A stretch of DNA of 64,000 nt from IMG/VR virus record IMGVR_UViG_3300030332_001481, positions 131,486 to 195,485 of that record; one strand, 5' to 3'. Shown one piece after another: positions 5,777 to 39,903 of the stretch. The DNA is from a virus. Lineage: Duplodnaviria > Heunggongvirae > Uroviricota > Caudoviricetes. The notes under the pieces were generated by a model. It was not told the origin of the DNA, searched no databases, and worked only from the letters and a program-made list of their open reading frames with translations. Every line of letters begins with the position of its first letter. Positions within the stretch are counted from its first letter, which is position 1. The translations under genes and the position numbers were made by a program.

Positions 5777-6559
5777 ATGACGGAACAACTAGACCTCCTG
5801 CCCACCATACTCAACGTCTATAGCGTCGCCGACGACCTGAAGCTGTTCCTGTCGGAGGGATCGTGTAACGACCTGCGGCAGCTACAGTTCGTGGAGAAGG
5901 GAAACAATCCTCTGCGGGGCCACTGTTACGTGGCCTCGGAGGTCCTCGCTCACCTTCTCCGGGAGAGAGGCGTGAAGATCACTCCCATGCAGATCAACCA
6001 CGAGGAGGAGTCGCACTGGTACCTGAGATGGCAGATCGGGAACAACCAGGGCGTGGTTGACGTGACCAAGTCCCAGTTCGCCCGCCCACCGAGGTACACA
6101 CAGGGTCGGGGCAGGGGATTTCTCACGAAGGATCTTTCCAAGCGGGCCGTGGAGATGCTCCATCGCTACTCCGCTTGGAAGCGCTTGGGCGAGACCGCCC
6201 ACGTTGGGGTGTCGGAGTCGAAGTCTTCGCCGCTCCAGGAGGAGCCTACCAACATCGGTCTCATCTACGCAAAGGTGGACTCGAAGCATGTAAAGCTGGT
6301 CTTTGACCTGAAGAACAGCGACCACCCCGAGCGCATGGCAGCCACGGACTGGGAGGACGTTACGGATCTCATGGATGCGTTGACCGACCACTTCAAGCCA
6401 GACCTCAAGTGTGAGCTGGCTGTGAACCCACGCAGCGTGGTGATCAACATCCTGGGCCACTGGAACATCTTCAACATGCCACCCCATCCTGACGAGCGTT
6501 TCCTCTCGTGGGCTGCTGGGTTCCTGTACGCTCGCCAGCTTAATAGGAGAAACCAATGA
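5777..6559 (+). CDS. transglutaminase/YunG-like Cys-His-Asp protein with C-terminal extension
   Basis: GHCYVASE...SHWYL...VDVTKSQF spacing; GAGG before ATG 5777. Confidence 0.5.
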   Translation: MTEQLDLLPTILNVYSVADDLKLFLSEGSCNDLRQLQFVEKGNNPLRGHCYVASEVLAHLLRERGVKITPMQINHEEESHWYLRWQIGNNQGVVDVTKSQFARPPRYTQGRGRGFLTKDLSKRAVEMLHRYSAWKRLGETAHVGVSESKSSPLQEEPTNIGLIYAKVDSKHVKLVFDLKNSDHPERMAATDWEDVTDLMDALTDHFKPDLKCELAVNPRSVVINILGHWNIFNMPPHPDERFLSWAAGFLYARQLNRRNQ

Positions 6560-7230: not shown

Positions 7231-7947
7231 GTGACGTTGAACTGGGAAGAAGAGAAGGCGAAGGCCATCGCGTGGATCATCGAGGGCAGCAAGAAGGCGT
7301 TCGCCGCCAAGGCCATCGATGAGAGGGCTATTCGCAACGTCCTCCATAACAACAACCTGACCGTCAAGTTCTCGGGTCGCATGGTGGACACCGTGGGACT
7401 GGCCTTCAATGGCTACCCCAAGAAGTCTCCCCGCAAACTCGCACGCTGGATCAAGCTCAGTAAGTTTGCGTGGGAGCATTTCTCCGAGAAGGACAAGAAG
7501 GAGACCGTTCTTCACGAGTTGGCCCACATCTTTGTGTCCGAGATGGTGCGTGCGGGAAAGCTGAAGGAAGAAGGCACCAGGCGTCGACGTGTAGTTCACG
7601 GAAAGAACTTCAAGAACATGTGTGCTGCGTTGGGCGACGCCTCCTTCTCATTCGCCAGGCATGACTTTGGCCTGCCCCCACACCCCACGCGGCATAAGAA
7701 CCACAAGCCTTCTTTCTGTGGTTGCCCTGAAAGAATGCAGCCTCGCTTTCACCTCTCCCCGAACCAGCAGAAGAAGCTCAAGAGTGGCAATAAACTCTAC
7801 TGCCGATCTTGCAAACACTACATTGGACTGACGAAGGAAGACGTAGCGCCCATGCCTGTCAGGCGCCGTAAGCGTACCGTCACTGCTCACACCTCCACTA
7901 GGTTTCCTCGTGACGGGGAGCCGCTTATCACTTTCATTGACGTCTAA
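7231..7947 (+). CDS. SprT-like metalloprotease with Zn ribbon
   Basis: VLHELAH, HGKNFKNMC, CGC...CRSC; GGAGGAG before GTG 7231. Confidence 0.75.
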   Translation: MTLNWEEEKAKAIAWIIEGSKKAFAAKAIDERAIRNVLHNNNLTVKFSGRMVDTVGLAFNGYPKKSPRKLARWIKLSKFAWEHFSEKDKKETVLHELAHIFVSEMVRAGKLKEEGTRRRRVVHGKNFKNMCAALGDASFSFARHDFGLPPHPTRHKNHKPSFCGCPERMQPRFHLSPNQQKKLKSGNKLYCRSCKHYIGLTKEDVAPMPVRRRKRTVTAHTSTRFPRDGEPLITFIDV

Positions 7948-8610: not shown

Positions 8611-8987
8611 CCAGCATCAATGACATGGATATCAAGGAGCTGGGCCGCATGGTCCATGATCTCTTGGGGGATCGCTTCACGGAGCTGAAGACTCAGTGCC
8701 GTCTCAGTGCGGAAGAGCTGCAACGTGCCAATGATGATTGGGTCGTGGAGATCAACACTTCCAATGTGAAAGCTGCCCTGCGTACCGGAAATGTGGTGTG
8801 GGTCAAGTACGAAGGTGGGTGGGTTTCGTACACCATCATACGGGACAGTCGGCAATGGGCCCAGAACACGAATTGTTCCGATCTAGAAGAAGTATTCGAG
8901 ACCACTGCTCAGGTACTACATCAACTGGAAGTCAGCGAGAACCTCGCTCGGTGGTGTAAAGACAACAAATACCAGGCAGCTCCCTGA
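8607..8987 (+). CDS. hypothetical protein
   Basis: GGAGGAG SD before GTG 8607. Confidence 0.65.
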   Translation: MTSINDMDIKELGRMVHDLLGDRFTELKTQCRLSAEELQRANDDWVVEINTSNVKAALRTGNVVWVKYEGGWVSYTIIRDSRQWAQNTNCSDLEEVFETTAQVLHQLEVSENLARWCKDNKYQAAP

Positions 8988-9340: not shown

Positions 9341-9415
9341 GGTAGGGAGCCGACGGGGAGCAGGTCAAAGCCTGCTCTACCTAACCACCAATCAATAACC
9401 TTCCAGGAAACCACC

Positions 9416-11749
9416 ATGGAACTCCAGACCACCAAGAGCGACGTGATCATCTCCGAAGGCCAGGAGGTGGTGGATTGTTCGATCAAGATCGACGCAGCCA
9501 CCTTCAAGATCTTCAGTGAGACCCTGTACTCTCGTACCTACGACGCCATCGTTCGTGAGCTTGCCTGCAATGCTTACGACAGCCAGACTGTGGCCGGGAC
9601 GCTGGACCGTCCCTTTGAGATCAATCTCCCCACCGCTCTCGCCAGTACCTTCAGCATCCGCGACTTCGGTACCGGGATGAGCAAGGAGACGATGAAGAGG
9701 GTCTTCTCGCAGTGGTTCAACTCCACCAAGCGTGAAGACAACACCCAGACCGGGTGCTTCGGGATCGGCTCCAAGGCGCCTCTCGCCTACGTTCCGAAGT
9801 TCACCGTCGTCAGCTGGCACGGCGGCATCAAGCACATCATGCAGATGGCGCTACAGGACGACGGCGACGGCCGAGGTGGTGTCCCTGCTCAGGTGTTCCT
9901 GTCGGAGACTCCTTCCGACGAGCCCAGCGGTCTGGAGGTTTACTTCCACGTCCAGCCGGAGAACTACTACGACTTTCGTGTGGCCGCCGAGACGGTCCTT
10001 CGTCCTTTCCCTGAGGGGTCGTACAAGGTCGTCCGAGGAGGCAGCCACTTCGATGTAGAGGAGTACCCCGAGCGTGACTTCCTCAGTGGCGAAGTCACCT
10101 CTCCCTCCATGGGTAAGTTCCCCTACAAGGTCTACTACTCGAACTCTGGCTTTCGTTCCACGCTTGTGATGGGGAACGTGGAGTACCCCCTCGTCAACCA
10201 GAACAAGTTCTCCCTCAACGCCAAGCGCGTCGCCAACCTGTCGATCAAGATCGACTGCCCGCTCAACACCTTCTCGATGACTCCGTCCCGGGAGACGGTG
10301 CAGTGGTCGGAGGACTTCTCGATCCCCCGGGTCAACGAAGTCCTGGAGCTGATCTTCGAACAGATCGACGAGCGCCTCGACAACGAGGTTGCCGCGGCCG
10401 ACTCCTACTGGGAGGCTTGCCTTCTGGCAAAGGCGTACTTCCACAAGAGCCCGTTCTCTCAGTGGGGACACAAGCCCCAGTGGAAGGGAAAGAAGATCCA
10501 GTTCAAGATCTCCGTCGAGTCCGATCTGAAGGACGGGGACGTCACCATGACCGGCGTCCAGGCAACGACCAAGAGGGGCGACACGCTGGCGAACAACTCC
10601 GCCAGTGAGTACGGCAAGGTACGTGATGTGGATGTGGTGGGGTCCACCAGGTTCTTCATCAACGATCTTCCGGGCAAGAAGGGGCTCTCCCGGATCAAGA
10701 AGCACATTCGTTACCGGATGGCCATGGACCAGGTCTGCTACCTGATCTCTTCGGAGGACAAGAAGAAGCTCGACGCTCTGACGAAGGAGACGCTGGGTCT
10801 CCACACCACCAAGATCGAGCCCGTGTCGTCCCTGGAAGACTTCACCCCGCCGCGCCGAGCGGGTGGTGGCGGCGGAGGTGGCGGAGGTAGCAGCTCTGCT
10901 GTGTCGGGGACTCGCTGCCTCGCCTACACGCCAATCAACGAAGGCCACTACAGCCGCAGAGCTGCGGACAAATGGGAACCCTCCGATATCGATCTGGAAG
11001 AAGACTCGGGTGTCTTCGTCGAGATCAGTCGGTGGAAGGTCTGCGACAGCATGACTGGCGAGAGCATCTCTGACATCCGAGACATCCTGCGAGATGTTTG
11101 TAAGGTTGCTGGGATCGACGAGCCCATTCTTGTGGGAGTTCGGACTTCGCAGGTACAGAAGTTCCATGACTCTGACAGCTGGCACAGCTTCGACGCTTGG
11201 GCACGTGACATCCTAAAGGATGCGTGGATGAACGACACGCTTCTCCGGTGGAGCGTGGACTTTCACGCGAGAAGTTCTTTCTACCAGACGAGCAGCTGGG
11301 GTGACAGTGTCGTGTCGTCGAGGCACCGGGACGCGGTCAAGACCTTCTGTGCGAGGGTCAACAAGAGCCGCAACCTCTTCTCCGGAACTCCTTGGGTGCT
11401 GCACTACGTCGACAAGATCAATGACATCATCTCAAAGAAGGCAGACGAGCAGGCGACGCGGTTCGTGACCTCCTACCTCAACTTGAAGCTCCACGAAGAG
11501 TTTGGGCTCGTGAGTCCGAACTACGGAGGCAAGATCCAGTACTACGGGGTCCTCGCTGATCGTATCCCGCTGCTTCAGGAGTTCTGTACCTACAGTGGCT
11601 TGAGCCTCAGTGGTCAGGACCTGGCCACGCTCGTGGAGATGAGCAGCCTTTACCTGGCCAAGAAGGAAGCCGAGAAGCAGGCGCGAGACGCGGCAGCGCA
11701 GGCAGCTGATGGGGACGACGATCCCAACACCTTGAGGGCCGTGGGGTGA
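9416..11749 (+). CDS. rIIA: RIIA-like protein (N-terminal GHKL ATPase fold)
   Basis: LYSRTYDAIVRELACNAYDS, IRDFGTGMS, STKREDNTQTGCFGIGSKAPLAY; paired with downstream rIIB. Confidence 0.85.
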   Translation: MELQTTKSDVIISEGQEVVDCSIKIDAATFKIFSETLYSRTYDAIVRELACNAYDSQTVAGTLDRPFEINLPTALASTFSIRDFGTGMSKETMKRVFSQWFNSTKREDNTQTGCFGIGSKAPLAYVPKFTVVSWHGGIKHIMQMALQDDGDGRGGVPAQVFLSETPSDEPSGLEVYFHVQPENYYDFRVAAETVLRPFPEGSYKVVRGGSHFDVEEYPERDFLSGEVTSPSMGKFPYKVYYSNSGFRSTLVMGNVEYPLVNQNKFSLNAKRVANLSIKIDCPLNTFSMTPSRETVQWSEDFSIPRVNEVLELIFEQIDERLDNEVAAADSYWEACLLAKAYFHKSPFSQWGHKPQWKGKKIQFKISVESDLKDGDVTMTGVQATTKRGDTLANNSASEYGKVRDVDVVGSTRFFINDLPGKKGLSRIKKHIRYRMAMDQVCYLISSEDKKKLDALTKETLGLHTTKIEPVSSLEDFTPPRRAGGGGGGGGGSSSAVSGTRCLAYTPINEGHYSRRAADKWEPSDIDLEEDSGVFVEISRWKVCDSMTGESISDIRDILRDVCKVAGIDEPILVGVRTSQVQKFHDSDSWHSFDAWARDILKDAWMNDTLLRWSVDFHARSSFYQTSSWGDSVVSSRHRDAVKTFCARVNKSRNLFSGTPWVLHYVDKINDIISKKADEQATRFVTSYLNLKLHEEFGLVSPNYGGKIQYYGVLADRIPLLQEFCTYSGLSLSGQDLATLVEMSSLYLAKKEAEKQARDAAAQAADGDDDPNTLRAVG

Positions 11750-12121: not shown

Positions 12122-13309
12122 ATGACTGACATCGCATACATTCTCGGGCCGACCGCGTTCACGGTTGTGATCCGGGGCGAGGTTTTCGAGATCGGGAACG
12201 ACCACCCCAAGTTCAACGACATCCTGGACGTCATTCGCAACGCTCCGGAGAACGAGACGGCCGAGCAGAACTTCGACCGCGCAGAGTTGCTCCTGAGCCT
12301 CGTCAAGCAGGACAGCGCGAACGCCTTCACCAATCAGCTCGAAGAGCTGGGCATCGAAGACATCACCGTCGAGAACGGGCAGGTGCTCGTTCGCGGTGAG
12401 CCCATGCACACTCACCTGACCGACCGCATCTTGGAGCTACAGAAGGCGCGGCTTCCCTTCGAGTTCCTCCTCAAGTTCTGGGTCAACCTCAGCGCCAACC
12501 CGGACGAGCACCCGCGGCAGAACCTCTTCAAGTTCCTGGATTCGTGCCGGTTCCCGCTCACCGACGATGGGTGCTTCCTGGGGTACAAGTTCGGCAAGTA
12601 CAACGACGAGGGTCAGATCGTCGACTGGTACTCCGGAACGACGGTCCTTGAGCCGGGTGCCAAGGTTCCCATGAAGCGTGAGGACGTGGTCGCTGACCCG
12701 AAGGAACCGTGCGCCCCGGGTCTCCACATCGGAACTCTCAACTACGCGAAGGGAATAGGGGCCAACAACCCCATGGTGGTGGTCAAGGTGAACCCCAAGG
12801 ACGTTGTTTCCATCCCCAACGAGTACAGGTTCCAGAAGCTCAGGAGCTGCTACTACGAGGTGGTCAACGTCTTCCGCGGCACCGTAAAGACGAGCAAGCA
12901 GTTCGTCCGTCCTGCCTACAAGGAGGAAGAGTACTCCTCCGAGACGTGGGAGGATGAGGAAGACGTCTACGAGGTCACGATGGGTGAGCCCGAAGACGCC
13001 CGCCGCGAGCGCTACAGCGCGATGAGCCGGGATGAGGTCTGTCGCATCGCTGCCTCAGAGGGGGTCTTCTTGTCCACCAACGAGGCGCGGGACCTGGGCA
13101 AGGACGTCGTGGTCGAGAGCATGGTGGCGGGAATCTTCCCCTACCAGAACTGCCCGAAGTCTGCCATGGTCAAGCTGGCGCTTCGCCGCAAGATGTTCAC
13201 CTCGCCGCGCAAGGCTCAGCGCACGCCGGCCGAGACTCTGTCTCAGCTCATCAAGGACTCCACTCGGGAGGTGCGAAACCAGACCCTCGAATCGGAAAGT
13301 GAGGGTTGA
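12122..13309 (+). CDS. rIIB: RIIB-like protein
   Basis: FLLKFWVNLSANP, LTDDGCFLGYK, CAPGLH, VKVNPKDVVSIP, KLRSCYYEV. Confidence 0.85.
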   Translation: MTDIAYILGPTAFTVVIRGEVFEIGNDHPKFNDILDVIRNAPENETAEQNFDRAELLLSLVKQDSANAFTNQLEELGIEDITVENGQVLVRGEPMHTHLTDRILELQKARLPFEFLLKFWVNLSANPDEHPRQNLFKFLDSCRFPLTDDGCFLGYKFGKYNDEGQIVDWYSGTTVLEPGAKVPMKREDVVADPKEPCAPGLHIGTLNYAKGIGANNPMVVVKVNPKDVVSIPNEYRFQKLRSCYYEVVNVFRGTVKTSKQFVRPAYKEEEYSSETWEDEEDVYEVTMGEPEDARRERYSAMSRDEVCRIAASEGVFLSTNEARDLGKDVVVESMVAGIFPYQNCPKSAMVKLALRRKMFTSPRKAQRTPAETLSQLIKDSTREVRNQTLESESEG

Positions 13310-13333
13310 CACCGAGCCGGCCCCTGCTAGTAT
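13306..13333 (+). promoter_or_regulatory. sigma70-type promoter
   Basis: TTGACA (13306-11), 16-nt spacer with extended TG, TAGTAT (13328-33). Confidence 0.65.
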
Positions 13334-13339
13334 AAGCGT

Positions 13340-13515
13340 GAGGTAAGGGTGTTTCCTCCTTTCTTCCCTTACCTGATCGCAAAGTCCGGACAGTAAGCTG
13401 AGCGTAGAAGTCTCCGAGGGTTGGTGGTTCTCCCATCGGACAAAAGACTCCGCGGCTGAATAGCCGGACACCCGAGGCCGGAGTAGGTTGTGGTTGCCTA
13501 CTCCGGCCTCACCTA
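13340..13515 (+). ncRNA. three-hairpin structured RNA, candidate multi-target antisense sRNA
   Basis: stems 13341-49/13366-74; 13384-13469 (gtccgg/ccggac, agtct/agact, tccga/tcgga); perfect 14 bp 13474-87/13497-510; loops complementary to phage RBS leaders. Confidence 0.65.
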
Positions 13516-13563
13516 TTTAACCACGAAACCACAATGACCTGTAAACGACCTGGGGGGTAACCA

Positions 13564-14211
13564 GTGAAGAAGGGTAACTACAAGACGATGACGCTTGCTG
13601 CTAATGGTGCTCTAGACCTACTGAATTCATTGGTAATGGGGGAGCCACCTCCCGAAAGCCCCAAGCTACACTTGGCGGAGGCTGTACAGGTTTCTGCTGG
13701 GATCAGTGGTAGAAACTGGAAAGAGAAGCTGAAGGCTGCGAACCTTCACCTCACCAACGCGGAAGTTGAGAAGCGCTGGGAGTCCCTGAGCGCTACCAAG
13801 CGCCGCCGCTTGGACAACGTTTCGCTGCTGTCAGAGATTGTGCAGTGCGCCCCCACTGACCTCGCACTCTTCCAGAAGCAGGGTGTCTTCTGGAACCAGT
13901 CTGTTCCGCCCATCGGGGACGCACGATGGGAGACTGTCTGTCTAGGTCTCGTCAAGTTCATGGACATGAACGACCGAACCTACGACGAGCTTTCTTTGTG
14001 GGGGCTCTTCCACGGGATGCACGACTGGGTGGTTCGGAACCTGATGGCGTTCCTGGAGGACCGTGGCGTCGCTGAGAGCTACCTCCCTTCCGGCGTGGAC
14101 AAGTCGCGACAGGGTGCGTGGGTGTGGCGTGTACGGACCCAGGAGGAGTCGGAGGAGGAAGCTCGTGCGAATCTGCTAGTGGAGATTTCGAAGGCCCAGC
14201 AGCAGGGTTGA
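13564..14211 (+). CDS. hypothetical protein
   Basis: 215-aa ORF, GGGGGG before GTG. Confidence 0.7.
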   Translation: MKKGNYKTMTLAANGALDLLNSLVMGEPPPESPKLHLAEAVQVSAGISGRNWKEKLKAANLHLTNAEVEKRWESLSATKRRRLDNVSLLSEIVQCAPTDLALFQKQGVFWNQSVPPIGDARWETVCLGLVKFMDMNDRTYDELSLWGLFHGMHDWVVRNLMAFLEDRGVAESYLPSGVDKSRQGAWVWRVRTQEESEEEARANLLVEISKAQQQG

Positions 14212-15668: not shown

Positions 15669-15686
15669 CCAACCCTGGCCATACTA
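15669..15686 (+). promoter_or_regulatory. repeat motif copy 5
   Basis: exact motif; hairpin gagcagc/gctgctt follows. Confidence 0.8.
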
Positions 15687-15767
15687 AACAGGGAAGCCGA
15701 GCAGCGGGAGCTGCTTTGATTCAAACCACAGTTCTACTAGAAGCCTAGAGCAAGGGAACCACCAATC

Positions 15768-16484
15768 ATGACTACCGGATTCTACCGCTGCATCGACATC
15801 TCCATCTCGCTCGAAGACTGGATGAAGCTCAACTTCAACCGGGTCTCCACGTCCCTGGTTCAGCTCCTGCTGGACAAGGCGATGAACGAGGGGACGGATT
15901 CTTACGAACTCCTGGAGCGGCTGGACCGCGAGCGCCCCGAAGAGCCGGAGGAGCCCGAGGACCCGGAGATGGACGAGCCGTGCCTCGACGACTTCGAGAA
16001 CGAGGAGGACTACTCGGCCGCCATGGACGAGTTCGACGAGGCCATGGAAGAGCACGAGAGAGCCGTGGCTGAGTACGAAGAGGCGTACGCCGAGTGGGAA
16101 GACTGGAGTGAAGACTCTGATCTCGCTGGATTCCCTGCGGCGTGGGGGACCATGTGGACCTGCGAGGACACCCCCGCTACGGTCGAGGCGCTGATCGAGG
16201 CCGGGTTCGTGGTCTACCGCACCAGCGGCTTCATGGAGGACGTGGGAGACATCCTCTTCGGCGTCGACGGTGGGGGCTACTCGTTCTACGGGTCCCACTG
16301 GCTGCCGCTCCGGGCACAGCTCGTCGTGGAGTTGGCGCGAGGTAAGTACAGCGCTCTCGACGAGAACAGCGAAGAGTTTCGCACCATCATCGAGCACTTC
16401 GTGGATCGTATGGAGCGGGAGGGGGAGCGCCGCGACGAGGCGTTCCGCCGCTTCGGACTTCAGGACTGGAAGGTGGGGGAATGA
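15768..16484 (+). CDS. highly acidic phage protein
   Basis: D/E-rich central tract; WGTMW...FGVDGGGYSFY..HWLPL C-terminal motif. Confidence 0.75.
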   Translation: MTTGFYRCIDISISLEDWMKLNFNRVSTSLVQLLLDKAMNEGTDSYELLERLDRERPEEPEEPEDPEMDEPCLDDFENEEDYSAAMDEFDEAMEEHERAVAEYEEAYAEWEDWSEDSDLAGFPAAWGTMWTCEDTPATVEALIEAGFVVYRTSGFMEDVGDILFGVDGGGYSFYGSHWLPLRAQLVVELARGKYSALDENSEEFRTIIEHFVDRMEREGERRDEAFRRFGLQDWKVGE

Positions 16485-19758: not shown

Positions 19759-19801
19759 TCTTTCCACCTAATCACTAATACACGAAACAAGGAGAACCAC
19801 C

Positions 19802-20191
19802 ATGAGCTACAACGTTTACATGATCTACCCCGAACTCAACATCGGCTACGCTCCCGGCGACCTGCTCGCTCAGGGCATGGTTCGAGCGGTCGAGATCAAG
19901 GTCGGTCAGGCCGACTCGGAGTACGAGGCGCGATGCCTGGCGCTCAACCTTGGGATCGCCAACCTGAAGGACCGTAAAGCTCGGCGGAACCGGAACGAGG
20001 ACGACACCTCGACGGTGATCGGGTTTGGTATCCGGTCCCGCTACACGCCGCCCAAGACCTCCCGTCGGCAGCACGAGAAGACGTACCAGTGGGAGATCTC
20101 CATGCAGGACATCGAGATCATGATCTACAACGAGGTGCAGCGCCGCAAGCGGGAGGGTATCCCGCTCGAAGGGACGAAGGGGAAGAAGTGA
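19802..20191 (+). CDS. hypothetical protein
   Basis: AAGGAGAACCACC-ATG leader. Confidence 0.75.
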   Translation: MSYNVYMIYPELNIGYAPGDLLAQGMVRAVEIKVGQADSEYEARCLALNLGIANLKDRKARRNRNEDDTSTVIGFGIRSRYTPPKTSRRQHEKTYQWEISMQDIEIMIYNEVQRRKREGIPLEGTKGKK

Positions 20192-20907: not shown

Positions 20908-20950
20908 CAGCCTCAAGCTCTAGCCAAACAAACAGAAAGCAGGAAACACC

Positions 20951-22009
20951 TTGAGCATCCCCGCCATTCAGGAAGTCACGACCGCCTCCGTTCTCAAGTA
21001 CCTTCGGGAGATGGACGGTCCCTCCGGTACCTCGCCCAAGGGGCTGGGTCGTGTCATGAAGGCTCTCAAGACGGACAAGTACCGCTCGGTACCCTCTCTC
21101 GTCAAGCACTCCAATATCAGTGAGATCGTGGCTCGCGGTGCGGTGACGTTCCTGGTCGCGAACGGCCTGGCCGACTCGTACCGCGACACCAGCAGCCGTA
21201 GGTACGGTCGTCCCCCGACGTTGTACCGGCTGCGGAGCCGAGCGGTCATGGCCAGCGACCAGGTGCTGGCCGACGAGTTCGGCTGCCACCCGAACCTGGT
21301 TCGGTACTACCGAGCGGTTGTCGAGTTCGGCCCGGCGACCCTGCGTGAGCTGGACGAGCAGCTCCCGGGGCTCTCGTGGTACTCGGTCAAGATGCAGCTC
21401 CCCAAGCTTCGTGACATGAACGTGGTCTGCCAGAAGCAGACTCAGGGACACACGCATGTGTACTTCGTGGAGGAGCCCGAGTCTGCTCAGGAGCCCTCGA
21501 ACCTGGAGTTGGCGCAGGCGGCATCTCAGGGTCAGCTCACCCAGACGCAGCAGACTCAGCTGAACTCGATTCTTCCTCCGATCAGTACCTTCGCTGGAAA
21601 CTACGAGGGCACCGACCTGACCATGGTGGAAGAGACCGAGGAGCCCATCGAGATTCGTCCGCTCATCGAAGATGCGCAGCTTACCAAGGCCCTGATGACG
21701 CTGACGGGCATGGCGGAGGCGCACAGTAACGCGACCGTCAAGGCGGCTGAGATTCGCTCGGCGGGGCTCCTCCAGGTGGGCCAGGTGGTCGGCGGGGCTA
21801 TCTTGCAAGGTCTGACGAAGATCGCCAGCGCCATCGAGAGCACCGCAGCCGCGAAGCAGGATCGAGAGGAGGCTCACCCCGACGGGGTCAACGGGAACGA
21901 GACCCCTGCCGTAAAGGTGGCCTCGGACAGGGGTACTCTCCTCCCGCCTGGTGGGCGTACTCCCGGCCGCCACCCGGGCCGCAGCCGCAACGGCTCCTAC
22001 CGCTCCTAG
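20951..22009 (+). CDS. putative winged-helix DNA-binding protein
   Basis: GRPPTLYRL wing; FGPATLRELDEQL..SVKMQLPKL TrmB-like HTH; AGGAAACACC-TTG start. Confidence 0.55.
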   Translation: MSIPAIQEVTTASVLKYLREMDGPSGTSPKGLGRVMKALKTDKYRSVPSLVKHSNISEIVARGAVTFLVANGLADSYRDTSSRRYGRPPTLYRLRSRAVMASDQVLADEFGCHPNLVRYYRAVVEFGPATLRELDEQLPGLSWYSVKMQLPKLRDMNVVCQKQTQGHTHVYFVEEPESAQEPSNLELAQAASQGQLTQTQQTQLNSILPPISTFAGNYEGTDLTMVEETEEPIEIRPLIEDAQLTKALMTLTGMAEAHSNATVKAAEIRSAGLLQVGQVVGGAILQGLTKIASAIESTAAAKQDREEAHPDGVNGNETPAVKVASDRGTLLPPGGRTPGRHPGRSRNGSYRS

Positions 22010-25222: not shown

Positions 25223-25240
25223 TCAACCCTGGCCATACTA
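25223..25240 (+). promoter_or_regulatory. repeat motif copy 7
   Basis: TCAACCCTGGCCATACTA; G.U hairpin 25245-25274. Confidence 0.8.
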
Positions 25241-25310
25241 GATAGGGTCGGTGGGCTGCAAAGCTTGCCGGCCCTTTCTGCAATTCATCATTCAACTCAG
25301 GAGAACCACC

Positions 25311-25883
25311 ATGGGTCACTACATTTCCACTTCCGAGCTTCCGCCCTCCGTCTCCGCAGCCCTTGAGAGCGTCGGCTACGGCCGCAAGGACATCGAGGTC
25401 AAGGTCCAGGAGAAGATCTCCCTCAGCCCCACTTCGGGTGACGGTTTCAAGGGGTTCGTCGTCGCTTGCAAGCTCGACGGAAGCCGCGAGTTCTCGACCA
25501 CGTGGGGCAGCTGGGGCGGCACCAACATGTTCACGAAGACCGTGGACGATGCCTACCAGCTGATCGACGTGCCCGCCAACATGGGCTTCCTCGTCGGGCG
25601 GATCGGTGGCGGCAGGCCCACGTACGCCTCGCTGGTTGTTGGCCCCGCCAACATGAACCCGACTCTACTGCCTCCGCAGTCCGAGCTGACCGAGAAGGAG
25701 CGCTGGGCTCTAGGCGTCTTCAAGACGTACAAGAGTTCCTACCGTAAAGAGAAGCTCCGGGAGCGGGGCGTCACCGCGGAAGAGATCAAGAGTCTCGCCG
25801 ACCGGGGCTTTCTGAAGATCGCCAAGAACGGCGCCACTAGCATCACCACCGAGGGGAAGAACAACGCAGCACGCGTCTTCTGA
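25311..25883 (+). CDS. hypothetical protein, C-terminal wHTH-like segment
   Basis: CAGGAGAACCACC-ATG; EIKSLADRGFLKIAKNGATSITTEG. Confidence 0.75.
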   Translation: MGHYISTSELPPSVSAALESVGYGRKDIEVKVQEKISLSPTSGDGFKGFVVACKLDGSREFSTTWGSWGGTNMFTKTVDDAYQLIDVPANMGFLVGRIGGGRPTYASLVVGPANMNPTLLPPQSELTEKERWALGVFKTYKSSYRKEKLRERGVTAEEIKSLADRGFLKIAKNGATSITTEGKNNAARVF

Positions 25884-27647: not shown

Positions 27648-27690
27648 AGGGGCTGAGGCGACGTTGGTTGTCTCAGCCCCTGCTTATTTT
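27648..27690 (+). terminator. hairpin with T-rich tail (candidate short RNA)
   Basis: aggggctgag/ctcagcccct stem, GTTGGTTG apex, gcttatttt tail. Confidence 0.55.
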
Positions 27691-35165: not shown

Positions 35166-35241
35166 AGAGGGGTCGGGGAGCCTTGGGCTTGCTGACCCTT
35201 CTTGCGTTCCACCGACAACCAACCACAAGGAATCAACCACC

Positions 35242-35713: not shown

Positions 35714-35746
35714 CTGGGAGTAACTCAAACCACAAAGGAGAACCAC

Positions 35747-39528: not shown

Positions 39529-39903
39529 ATGGCAGTCAAGGTACACAAGTTCGAAGTGGTCATCGTCGACACCGACAACGTCGGGCCTGCGAAGCTCGTG
39601 GCAGACCTGGAGACGTCTGACATCGTCCGTGTGATGGACCGCGAAACGATCGAGGTCGACGGCTCGACCCCCTTCAATCACAACGACTATCGGAGACTCT
39701 TTCCGAAGACGAAGGTCACCCCAGAGCAGATGGAAGACCTGAAGGGGCTGGCCGCCGACCTGGAGGAGGCGGCCAAGCCGTTCTATACCTTCAACCTGAA
39801 CAGCCTGGCGATCGGAAGCCTCAGCTCGAAGGCGGAGAAGGTCTACAACACGAGCTTGCACGTGGCGAGGTTCATGCGCTGGCTCGCAGGCGAAGAAGAC
39901 TAA
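39529..39903 (+). CDS. hypothetical protein
   Basis: AAAGGAAAG before ATG 39529. Confidence 0.7.
   Translation: MAVKVHKFEVVIVDTDNVGPAKLVADLETSDIVRVMDRETIEVDGSTPFNHNDYRRLFPKTKVTPEQMEDLKGLAADLEEAAKPFYTFNLNSLAIGSLSSKAEKVYNTSLHVARFMRWLAGEED

Follow-up and report, generated by a model that had tools for sequence, protein, structure and literature searches.

Locus and predicted structure

This analysis concerns a noncoding region that follows the rIIB gene of a jumbo phage and is predicted to fold into three hairpins, the second of which (hairpin 2) carries a loop that recurs in unrelated genomes. The region lies in a 64,000-nucleotide (nt) stretch of DNA (the window, whose first base is position 1) that represents bases 131486-195485 of a 388,485-bp IMG/VR record, IMGVR_UViG_3300030332_001481, rated complete. 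The same phage has also been assembled from marine-metagenome run ERR599368 (project PRJEB4419). Its genome has a G+C content of about 58% and contains 30 tRNA genes by Aragorn, one or two of them doubtful. Matches to PHROGs placed rIIA at 9416-11749 and rIIB at 12122-13309. Nothing resembling the region was found in the cultured-phage collection, and the nearest rIIB proteins, in a search among 5.8 billion proteins, were about 40% identical.

A preliminary description of this DNA, made from the letters alone, had proposed a sigma70-type promoter at the rIIB stop, followed by about 175 nt with no convincing open reading frame (ORF), and both features held up. Judged by sequence criteria only, the promoter agrees with the consensus at 10 of 12 positions and has an extended TG element (Table 1); 0.2 such sites are expected in shuffles of the region. 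The entire 388-kb genome contains six sites of similar quality, four of which are intergenic. On the + strand, we found no ORF of at least 25 amino acids between 13346 and 13564. All neighboring genes are on the + strand as well, and a promoter scan of the region found no promoter-like site on the - strand. In the two relatives whose rIIB loci were fetched, rIIB is followed by only a plain terminator, with no counterpart of the three-hairpin region. Because these nearest relatives have just the terminator, the RNA as a whole had no homologues with which covariance could be tested.

Folding supported the three hairpins that had been described. The + strand of 13335-13525 has a predicted energy of -84.5 kcal/mol (z = -5.3), and none of 200 shuffles was as stable (0/200); the structure comprises 52 pairs, three of which are G-U. 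Hairpin 2 forms the inner arm of a larger domain in the intergenic sequence 3' of rIIB and has no U-run of its own. Hairpin 3 is predicted to be very stable and has a terminator-like stem, but its tail, ACCUAUUUAACC, and its 9-nt loop fail the criteria of a terminator scan, and no U-run follows. The region also matches no known RNA family: with Rfam 15 (4227 models), the only hits at gathering thresholds in the whole window were two tRNAs, both elsewhere, and a search of 13200-13700 with E values up to 10 returned two noise matches (E > 3).

Loops on the + strand contain no GGA; such motifs, of the kind found in CsrB and RsmZ, occur only on the - strand. An RNA transcribed from the - strand would display them in its loops together with the leader-like sequences GGAGAACCACC and AAGGAGGAAACA, and it could sequester a leader-binding protein or 30S subunits, as a decoy in the CsrB/RsmZ manner. 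The fold of that strand, too, is better than chance (z = -3.3). Such a decoy is nevertheless very improbable, given the stronger fold of the + strand, the orientation of the neighboring genes, the lack of a - strand promoter-like site, and the finding that, in other genomes, U-runs after the motif and promoters before it occur only in the GGGUUGG orientation.

Hairpin 2 in other genomes

As judged from genome scans and an alignment, hairpin 2 is a copy of a widespread module that is absent from Rfam 15 and consists of the loop UUGGUGGUUCU, a G-C closure, and a freely varying stem. The surveys were exact-word scans for the 17-mer apex, GGGTTGGTGGTTCTCCC. In IMG/VR, this word occurred in 22 contigs representing about 12 lineages. 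It caps a hairpin in about 10 of the roughly 12 viral lineages, about eight of these being clearly intergenic, and the flanking arms are wholly different from one another. When 14 instances were aligned, the 17-mer was invariant, 86% of the cells were paired, and 7/7 variable flanking pairs had changed on both sides. The covariation score was 0.60 compared with 0.16 for shuffles, none of which reached the observed value (0/500), and slid registers scored 0.07-0.24. Since the apex is letter-perfect while the stems drift, the loop sequence itself is under selection.

In the jumbo phage, the 11-nt loop is closed by at least two G-C pairs (GG...CC) at 13419-13433. The paired stem below, which is 5-12 bp long and varies with the lineage, reads UCCGA/UCGGA in this copy, with one bulged A. 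The same loop is present in loci L008-L029, in the viral contig G004 (three copies), in Rhodococcus phage MacGully, in the L030 family of Bacteroidales, and in L113-L185. No second strong copy was found in the jumbo-phage genome with either a covariance model or a regular-expression search. The preliminary description had regarded the RNA as keyed to a signature specific to this phage; for loop 2 that view has to be abandoned, because the same module exists in unrelated phages and in Bacteroidales.

The surroundings of the hairpin differ among genomes, and no constant neighboring gene was found. Two viral contigs (L008 and L009) have a TATAAT about 10 nt upstream of the hairpin and a rho-independent terminator about 40 nt downstream. 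In G004 (also listed as L100; 17 kb, 44% G+C), the copy at 8885-8927 is followed by a clean U-run, which makes the hairpin itself clearly an intrinsic terminator, and an exact copy at 6298-6340 has five Ts after it. At 6200-6300 of the same contig, directly after one hairpin copy, come three direct repeats (TATACATAAG) together with a G+C-rich block; this could be an operator, iteron, or cos-like region. Neither L009 nor G004 has relatives in the cultured-phage collection.

Scanning of metagenomes gave 109 stretches; among the 80 listed, 23 (17 nonredundant) show the 17-mer in a clear hairpin context, many with a U-run after it. We also observed one conserved metagenome family (L112, L119, L124, L154, L157, L170, L173, L181, L186, and L187) in which the 17-mer lacks a flanking stem and reads AACCCAGTC-17mer-CTATGTGATGTGG. 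Among bacterial contigs, sampled at one genome per species, there were 50 matches to the 17-mer, which is about chance level. About 17 of them are in uncultured Bacteroidales, where (in L030, L034, L036, L040, L048, L069, and their relatives) the hairpin opens a structured RNA, about 150 nt long, with a U-run at its end. SusC-like genes lie downstream of this RNA, a conserved AACAATTGGGGGG element comes after it, and Rfam has no match for it, nor for the motif in 18 other loci. In many lineages the hairpin has a U-run after it on this strand, which indicates that this is the RNA strand.

An apparent match in Pseudomonas phage Epa5 was discarded as not being the motif, its core being absent. 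A full-text literature search for the letters of the motif returned only primers and guide sequences.

Complementarity to the phage's translation-initiation regions

All the complementary sites that had been listed for the three loops proved exact. The loop 2 complement GGAGAACCACCA occurs at 19791-19802 and 25300-25311, ending in both cases in the A of an ATG, and GGAGAACCAC, also complementary to loop 2, occurs at 35737. For loop 1, AGGAAACACC at 20941-20950 stands directly before the TTG at 20951, and AGAAAGGA is present in the leaders of genes 40640, 56546, and 61107. Loop 3 is complementary to CAACCACAA at 35220. In the whole genome, AACCACCATG has nine copies on the + strand.

We compared these matches with chance using 544 genes predicted by a codon-usage model with refined starts; their purine-rich Shine-Dalgarno region lies at -13 to -7. 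Translation-initiation regions (TIRs) were taken as -25 to +3, and exact k-mers complementary to each loop plus its closing pairs were counted against 1000 mononucleotide shuffles of the loop. Matches to loop 2 were found in 47 of the 544 TIRs for 7-mers (10.0 ± 6.0 expected; P < 0.001) and in 20 for 8-mers (2.4 expected; P about 0.001). Loop 1 matched 72 TIRs (29.7 expected; P = 0.003). For loop 3, there were 10 TIRs with 8-mers (1.6 expected; P = 0.01) and no significant excess with 6- or 7-mers. Loop-to-leader complementarity is therefore real and beyond composition-matched chance by exact-match counts. The proposed excess of targets did not extend to RNAduplex energies on 22-28-nt pieces that included the stem arms, which showed no excess over shuffles, a test that we judged crude and uninformative.

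The three loops differ in what their matches can tell. By its letters, loop 1 is a generic anti-Shine-Dalgarno sequence: it complements a strong Shine-Dalgarno sequence that is very common and would pair with most such sequences, so that its many "targets" are uninformative. In many bacteria, the CCUCCUUUCU contained in this loop also forms the 3' terminus of 16S rRNA. The loop 1 16-mer is found in >119 viral contigs; among the 80 listed, it is the antisense of a ribosome-binding site (RBS) a few bases upstream of a start in 57 and lies inside a hairpin in one. We therefore rejected hairpin 1 as a recurrent module, its 16-mer elsewhere being the antisense of common RBSs; a role for it as an anti-Shine-Dalgarno loop is plausible. 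Loop 3, whose best interaction has no net favorable energy, is weak evidence for targeting.

Matches to loop 2 were concentrated in particular genes. A k-mer enrichment upstream of genes yielded the promoter-like motif AACCCTGG-CCATACTAG, which is specific to this phage and often has TTAAGGG in front of it. By a loose pattern, it has 53 copies genome-wide, 18 of them in the window (708-60922), and these copies divide the region into expression units. In most cases, a short 5' hairpin (AGCCGG...CCGGC) comes after the motif, and then an A/C-rich leader. Loop 2 matches of at least 8 nt occur in 8 of the 47 first cistrons behind the motif (rIIA and genes 5016, 15768, 25311, 35242, 39529, 48272, and 61107), compared with 12 of the 497 other genes (odds ratio = 8.3, P = 1e-4). 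The A/C-rich leader signature noted in the preliminary description is real: AACCACC is present in 24 upstream regions, where 3.2 are expected. As a separate observation, the CCAACCC part of the promoter motif is complementary to the GGGUUGG arm of hairpin 2.

TABLE 1 Features of the rIIB-downstream region and predicted pairing sites, in window coordinates. Net energies are duplex energies minus the cost of opening both partners.
Feature	Position	Strand	Remarks
Sigma70-type promoter TTGACA-N16-TAGTAT with extended TG	13306-13333	+	TG one base upstream; -35 hexamer contains the rIIB stop (13307-13309)
Hairpin 1	13341-13374	+	9-bp stem; 16-nt loop at 13350-13365 containing CCUCCUUUCU
Closed multi-stem domain	13384-13469	+	Outer helix GUCCGG (13384-13389)/CCGGAC (13464-13469); encloses hairpin 2; in both minimum-free-energy and centroid structures
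Hairpin 2	13413-13440	+	Apex GGGUUGGUGGUUCUCCC at 13418-13434; loop UUGGUGGUUCU at 13421-13431; A13435 bulged
Hairpin 3	13474-13510	+	G+C-rich stem of 14-15 bp; loop UUGUGGUUG at 13488-13496; followed by ACCUAUUUAACC
CCTGTAAA motif	13538-13545	+	18 nt before the GTG at 13564; recurrent upstream element
rIIA leader, UAACCACCAAUCA plus AAACCACC-ATG	9380-9418	+	Net -10.8 kcal/mol
Predicted target GGGAACCACCAAUC-ATG, gene 15768-16484	15752-15770	+	First cistron behind the promoter motif at 15671; net -15.5 kcal/mol
Predicted target GGAGAACCACC-ATG, gene 19802-20191	19791-19804	+	12 nt complementary to 13422-13433; duplex -23.8, net -13.8 kcal/mol
Predicted loop 1 target AGGAAACACC-TTG, gene 20951-22009	20941-20953	+	Net -13.9 kcal/mol
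Predicted target GGAGAACCACC-ATG, gene 25311-25883	25300-25313	+	First cistron behind the promoter motif at 25225; net -13.3 kcal/mol

A second upstream element, CCTGTAAA, stands 10-25 nt before many starts, where it is about eightfold enriched, with about 50 further sites genome-wide; it may represent another class of promoter or mark a site of processing. Its position just before the GTG at 13564 means that the gene that follows is probably expressed from a signal of its own. At 13534-13561, an eight-codon mini-ORF (ATG ACC TGT AAA CGA CCT GGG GGG TAA) with an AACCAC-type leader ends 2 nt before that GTG, overlapping CCTGTAAA and a G-run Shine-Dalgarno sequence; it may encode a leader peptide or be there by chance.

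These signals bear on a purely cis-acting explanation, in which the region is punctuation: a terminator or 3' stabilizer for rIIA-rIIB, a restart promoter, and a structured leader or attenuator for gene 13564. It would have no trans function, and the matches would reflect the biased composition of A/C-rich and purine-rich leaders. The CCTGTAAA element and G-run Shine-Dalgarno sequence after hairpin 3 fit this explanation, as do the lone terminator hairpins after rIIB in the relatives, a hairpin 3 that may leak, and the duplex-energy test. So does the fate of a second candidate "anti-leader" hairpin at 27648-27681, which we rejected because most of its apex is base paired and its 10-mer match is no better than chance. 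Against it stand the composition-keeping shuffles (P of about 0.001 for loop 2) and the conservation of the apex to the letter across unrelated genomes while the stems drift; a strong promoter upstream of a strong hairpin would also be an odd way to drive the next gene. On balance, we regard an exclusively cis-acting role as unlikely.

Three further features lie outside the window. Another sigma70-type promoter close to consensus, TTGACA-N16-TATACT, is found at genome 213446-213733 (window coordinate about 81961), where it precedes about 290 nt without an ORF that contain a perfect hairpin of GGUGGUUGGUUAGC paired to GCUAACCAACCA; this may be another noncoding RNA with the same theme of G/U against A/C. 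Promoter-motif units at genome 214500-217200 have leaders that are G/U rich rather than A/C rich, with GGUUGGUUGG before ATG, and are complementary in kind to the AACCAACC leaders elsewhere. Finally, a tRNA with anticodon CUA (an amber suppressor, labeled tRNA-Pyl by Aragorn) lies at genome 130879-130954, which is 606-531 bases before the window start.

Co-occurrence of hairpin and matching start sites

If loop and leader belong together, genomes that carry the hairpin would be expected to carry matching start sites. The clearest case is Rhodococcus phage MacGully (L105), in which the hairpin lies between the holin stop and a bidirectional terminator, that is, in the 3' untranslated region (UTR) of the late/lysis transcript. 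It belongs to about 70 nt of inserted sequence with three small hairpins, the middle one having the conserved loop (39640-39780, equivalent to L105:1460-1600). In the two relatives examined, GuyFagieri and Braxoaddie (about 75% DNA identity), only the terminator is present there, which identifies the hairpin as a MacGully-specific insertion. The 12-mer GGAGAACCACCA occurs three times in MacGully: as the complement of the hairpin, directly before the GTG of gp20 (7795-7806), and one base before the ATG of gp61. Any given 12-mer is expected about 0.008 times per MacGully genome. Both relatives lack the hairpin and both start-site 12-mers, and GAGAACCACC occurs in them once only, on the other strand and inside the tail-gene region. 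Their gp61 homologues have a similar leader, GGAGAACACCCC-ATG and GGAGACACC-TTG, that is not perfectly complementary, and no gp20 homologue was found in the phage collection.

Other genomes pair the two elements in different ways. On metagenome contig L136 (1.9 kb), the hairpin serves as a terminator, and GGAGAACCACC-ATG heads an opposite-strand gene 1.4 kb away. Two more loci (L155 and L158) have GGGAGAACCA or GGAGAACCA 2-3 bases before a same-strand ATG. G004 contains AAAACCACC-ATG twice, and AACCACC ranks first among its 35 letter permutations upstream of ATGs (1/35), as it does in the jumbo phage. Pooled over 22 nonredundant hairpin loci (117 kb), there were 19 matches of at least 9 nt to the loop complement, compared with 8.0 expected, while 43 control loci that have the 17-mer without a hairpin (234 kb) gave 23 compared with 16.1 expected. 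These cases provide good, but not conclusive, grounds to think that loop and leader type are functionally linked in at least some lineages.

An alternative that draws on the same survey is that hairpin 2 binds or mimics a universal bacterial partner, such as a part of the ribosome, RNA polymerase or NusA at terminators, or an RNA-binding protein. The phage RNA would then be a protein- or ribosome-binding element or a special terminator cassette, and the leader matches would be secondary or coincidental. That an identical 11-nt loop is found across G+C contents and hosts (in a marine jumbo phage, a Rhodococcus phage, a contig with 44% G+C, and Bacteroidales chromosomes) points most strongly in this direction, as do, to a lesser degree, the role of the hairpin itself as a terminator in many lineages, the lack of a common neighboring gene, and the many hairpin contigs with no matching TIR in the DNA available. 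As to what might be mimicked, the apex may resemble the 3' end of 16S rRNA, GGUUGGAUCACCUCC, at 10 of 15 positions, and GGUGGUUC could pair with GGAUCACC with the help of two G-U pairs. Mimicry of a 23S rRNA segment that contains a similar 9-mer was rejected, because that segment is variable in the Bacteroidaceae genomes that we searched, and mimicry of a tRNA acceptor stem was rejected because no phage tRNA starts with GGUUCUC. No partner emerged from these comparisons, and a universal partner leaves unexplained both the exact start-codon 12-mers in three independent lineages and their absence from the two hairpin-less MacGully relatives. We consider this alternative, the chief competitor of antisense masking of TIRs, rather unlikely.

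Proposed function

Our tentative preference, to which we assign a probability of roughly 0.45, is that the region encodes a + strand antisense RNA, acting in trans or as a 3' UTR, that masks TIRs. Transcription of the + strand, pairing in vivo, and a repressive effect are all things that we infer. The RNA might exist in two forms that are not mutually exclusive. It could be a separate RNA of about 170 nt that host RNA polymerase starts at 13340 and that ends, perhaps inefficiently, at hairpin 3. It could also be the 3' UTR of an rIIA-rIIB message made from phage promoters at 9325 and 12050, and such a 3'-UTR form would have the same placement as the module in MacGully and G004. If rIIA and rIIB are cotranscribed, as we assume, a transcript with hairpin 2 in its 3' UTR might pair with the rIIA leader within one molecule.

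The build of the RNA would be modular, with hairpin 1 displaying an anti-Shine-Dalgarno loop, hairpin 2 supplying the shared module, and hairpin 3 closing the unit. The exposed loops would pair with TIRs of the GGAGAACCACC-AUG type, from the Shine-Dalgarno sequence across the spacer to the first base of the start codon, and TIRs of this type head many of the gene units driven by phage promoters. Pairing would block binding of the 30S subunit, and translation of those genes would be lowered or timed; we assume repression because the duplex covers the Shine-Dalgarno sequence through the start codon. The multitarget antisense regulator originally envisaged is partly supported: an antisense relation to leaders, aimed at first cistrons behind the phage promoter motif, is likely, but the key in loop 2 is not private to this phage, loop 1 is generic, and the evidence for loop 3 is weak.

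Several observations weigh against this antisense reading, in addition to the duplex-energy result. Because hairpin 3 has no U-run, a discrete 3' end of a small RNA is not assured. The pooled excess of 2.4x at hairpin loci differs only modestly from the 1.4x of controls. No matching TIR was seen in several hairpin contigs (L008, L009, L013, and L022), of each of which a few kilobases were available, and the "target" proteins of different phages have no homology to one another. In MacGully, GGAGAAC is simply the common Shine-Dalgarno sequence plus spacer and a relative has GGAGAACACCCC-ATG, so the match there is partly generic. Finally, pairing with phage leaders alone makes it hard to explain why an 11-nt loop should be invariant across hosts of different phyla.

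A broader version of the antisense reading is possible but more doubtful: hairpin and GGAGAACCACC-AUG leader might form a portable, two-part RNA-RNA control that has spread horizontally among unrelated phages, whose hosts belong to different phyla, and into Bacteroidales chromosomes. If so, start sites of selected genes would be masked by a hairpin at the terminator or in the 3' UTR of one transcript or, as in the jumbo phage, by a small RNA of its own, and phages would have a common "plug and socket" for timing translation. To our knowledge, only a few small RNAs of phages have been described, most of them with one target. Should the pairing be real, very different phages would be reusing a single short module to control translation; the field would gain a multitarget, loop-seeded regulator borne by phages, terminator loops would gain a function, and RNA family databases would gain an entry. 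If the antisense model fails, a loop that is letter-perfect across phyla needs a universal partner, which would be worth finding. The module is easily recognized by its sequence, and MacGully, which has it, is in culture and amenable to genetics, so that the idea is open to direct testing.

Comparison with known systems

The closest phage precedent is the c4 antisense RNA of P1 and P7 (Rfam "C4"), whose loops, in work by Citron and Schuster, reportedly pair with the RBS region of icd-ant and thereby shut off downstream expression. The CI and CA immunity RNAs of P4 and N15, respectively, are related to c4. The likeness lies in a small, structured, phage-encoded RNA with exposed loops complementary to the phage's own RBS-containing mRNA, and although the preliminary description knew of no such phage system, c4 already masks an RBS by its loops. 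The two differ in that c4 lies within its single target operon, icd-ant, whereas here dozens of unrelated genes have a matching leader, and the loop module is common to unrelated phages. Membership in the C4 family finds no backing: there was no C4 match in Rfam with E values up to 10, and the context is rIIB and unknown genes, not an immunity operon.

Two host-encoded types of regulator share other properties with the region. RNAIII and RsaE-type RNAs of Staphylococcus aureus expose pyrimidine-rich anti-Shine-Dalgarno sequences in several hairpin loops and, by pairing these with RBSs, repress many mRNAs, and CCUCCUUUCU in loop 1 is exactly such a sequence. Those RNAs, however, are host encoded and lineage specific, whereas loop 2 is G/U rich and would span the Shine-Dalgarno sequence, spacer, and start codon; Rfam revealed no sequence or model similarity between them and the region. 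GcvB of enterobacteria reportedly uses a G/U-rich seed (Sharma et al. 2007) to target C/A-rich translational enhancers in or upstream of RBSs in many mRNAs. The AACCACC/CAACC leaders of the phage are C/A-rich elements of that sort. The seed of GcvB is a single-stranded, Hfq-dependent linker; here, in contrast, it would sit in a hairpin apex, on an RNA that is phage borne.

The hairpin in uncultured Bacteroidales calls to mind the FopS/GibS family of Bacteroides, since there, too, the module heads RNAs of about 150 nt upstream of SusC-like genes. FopS and GibS are multicopy small RNAs that pair with TIRs of susC-like mRNAs; FopS reportedly has 14-15 copies in B. thetaiotaomicron and B. xylanisolvens, and the presence of a copy in a Bacteroides phage has led to the suggestion that phages spread the family (PMC11697453). 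In contrast, of the 50 exact 17-mer matches in the set with a single genome per species, none comes from a genome named as a Bacteroides species (0/50), and a covariance model of the hairpin found one strong match, the center genome itself, and two weak ones among 101 Bacteroidaceae genomes. Membership in FopS/GibS is not supported; the text of PMC11697453 prints no sequence for comparison. Precedents for loop- or seed-mediated control exist in c4, RNAIII, and GcvB; the shared hairpin module itself is the new finding, and it is the most valuable result of the analysis.

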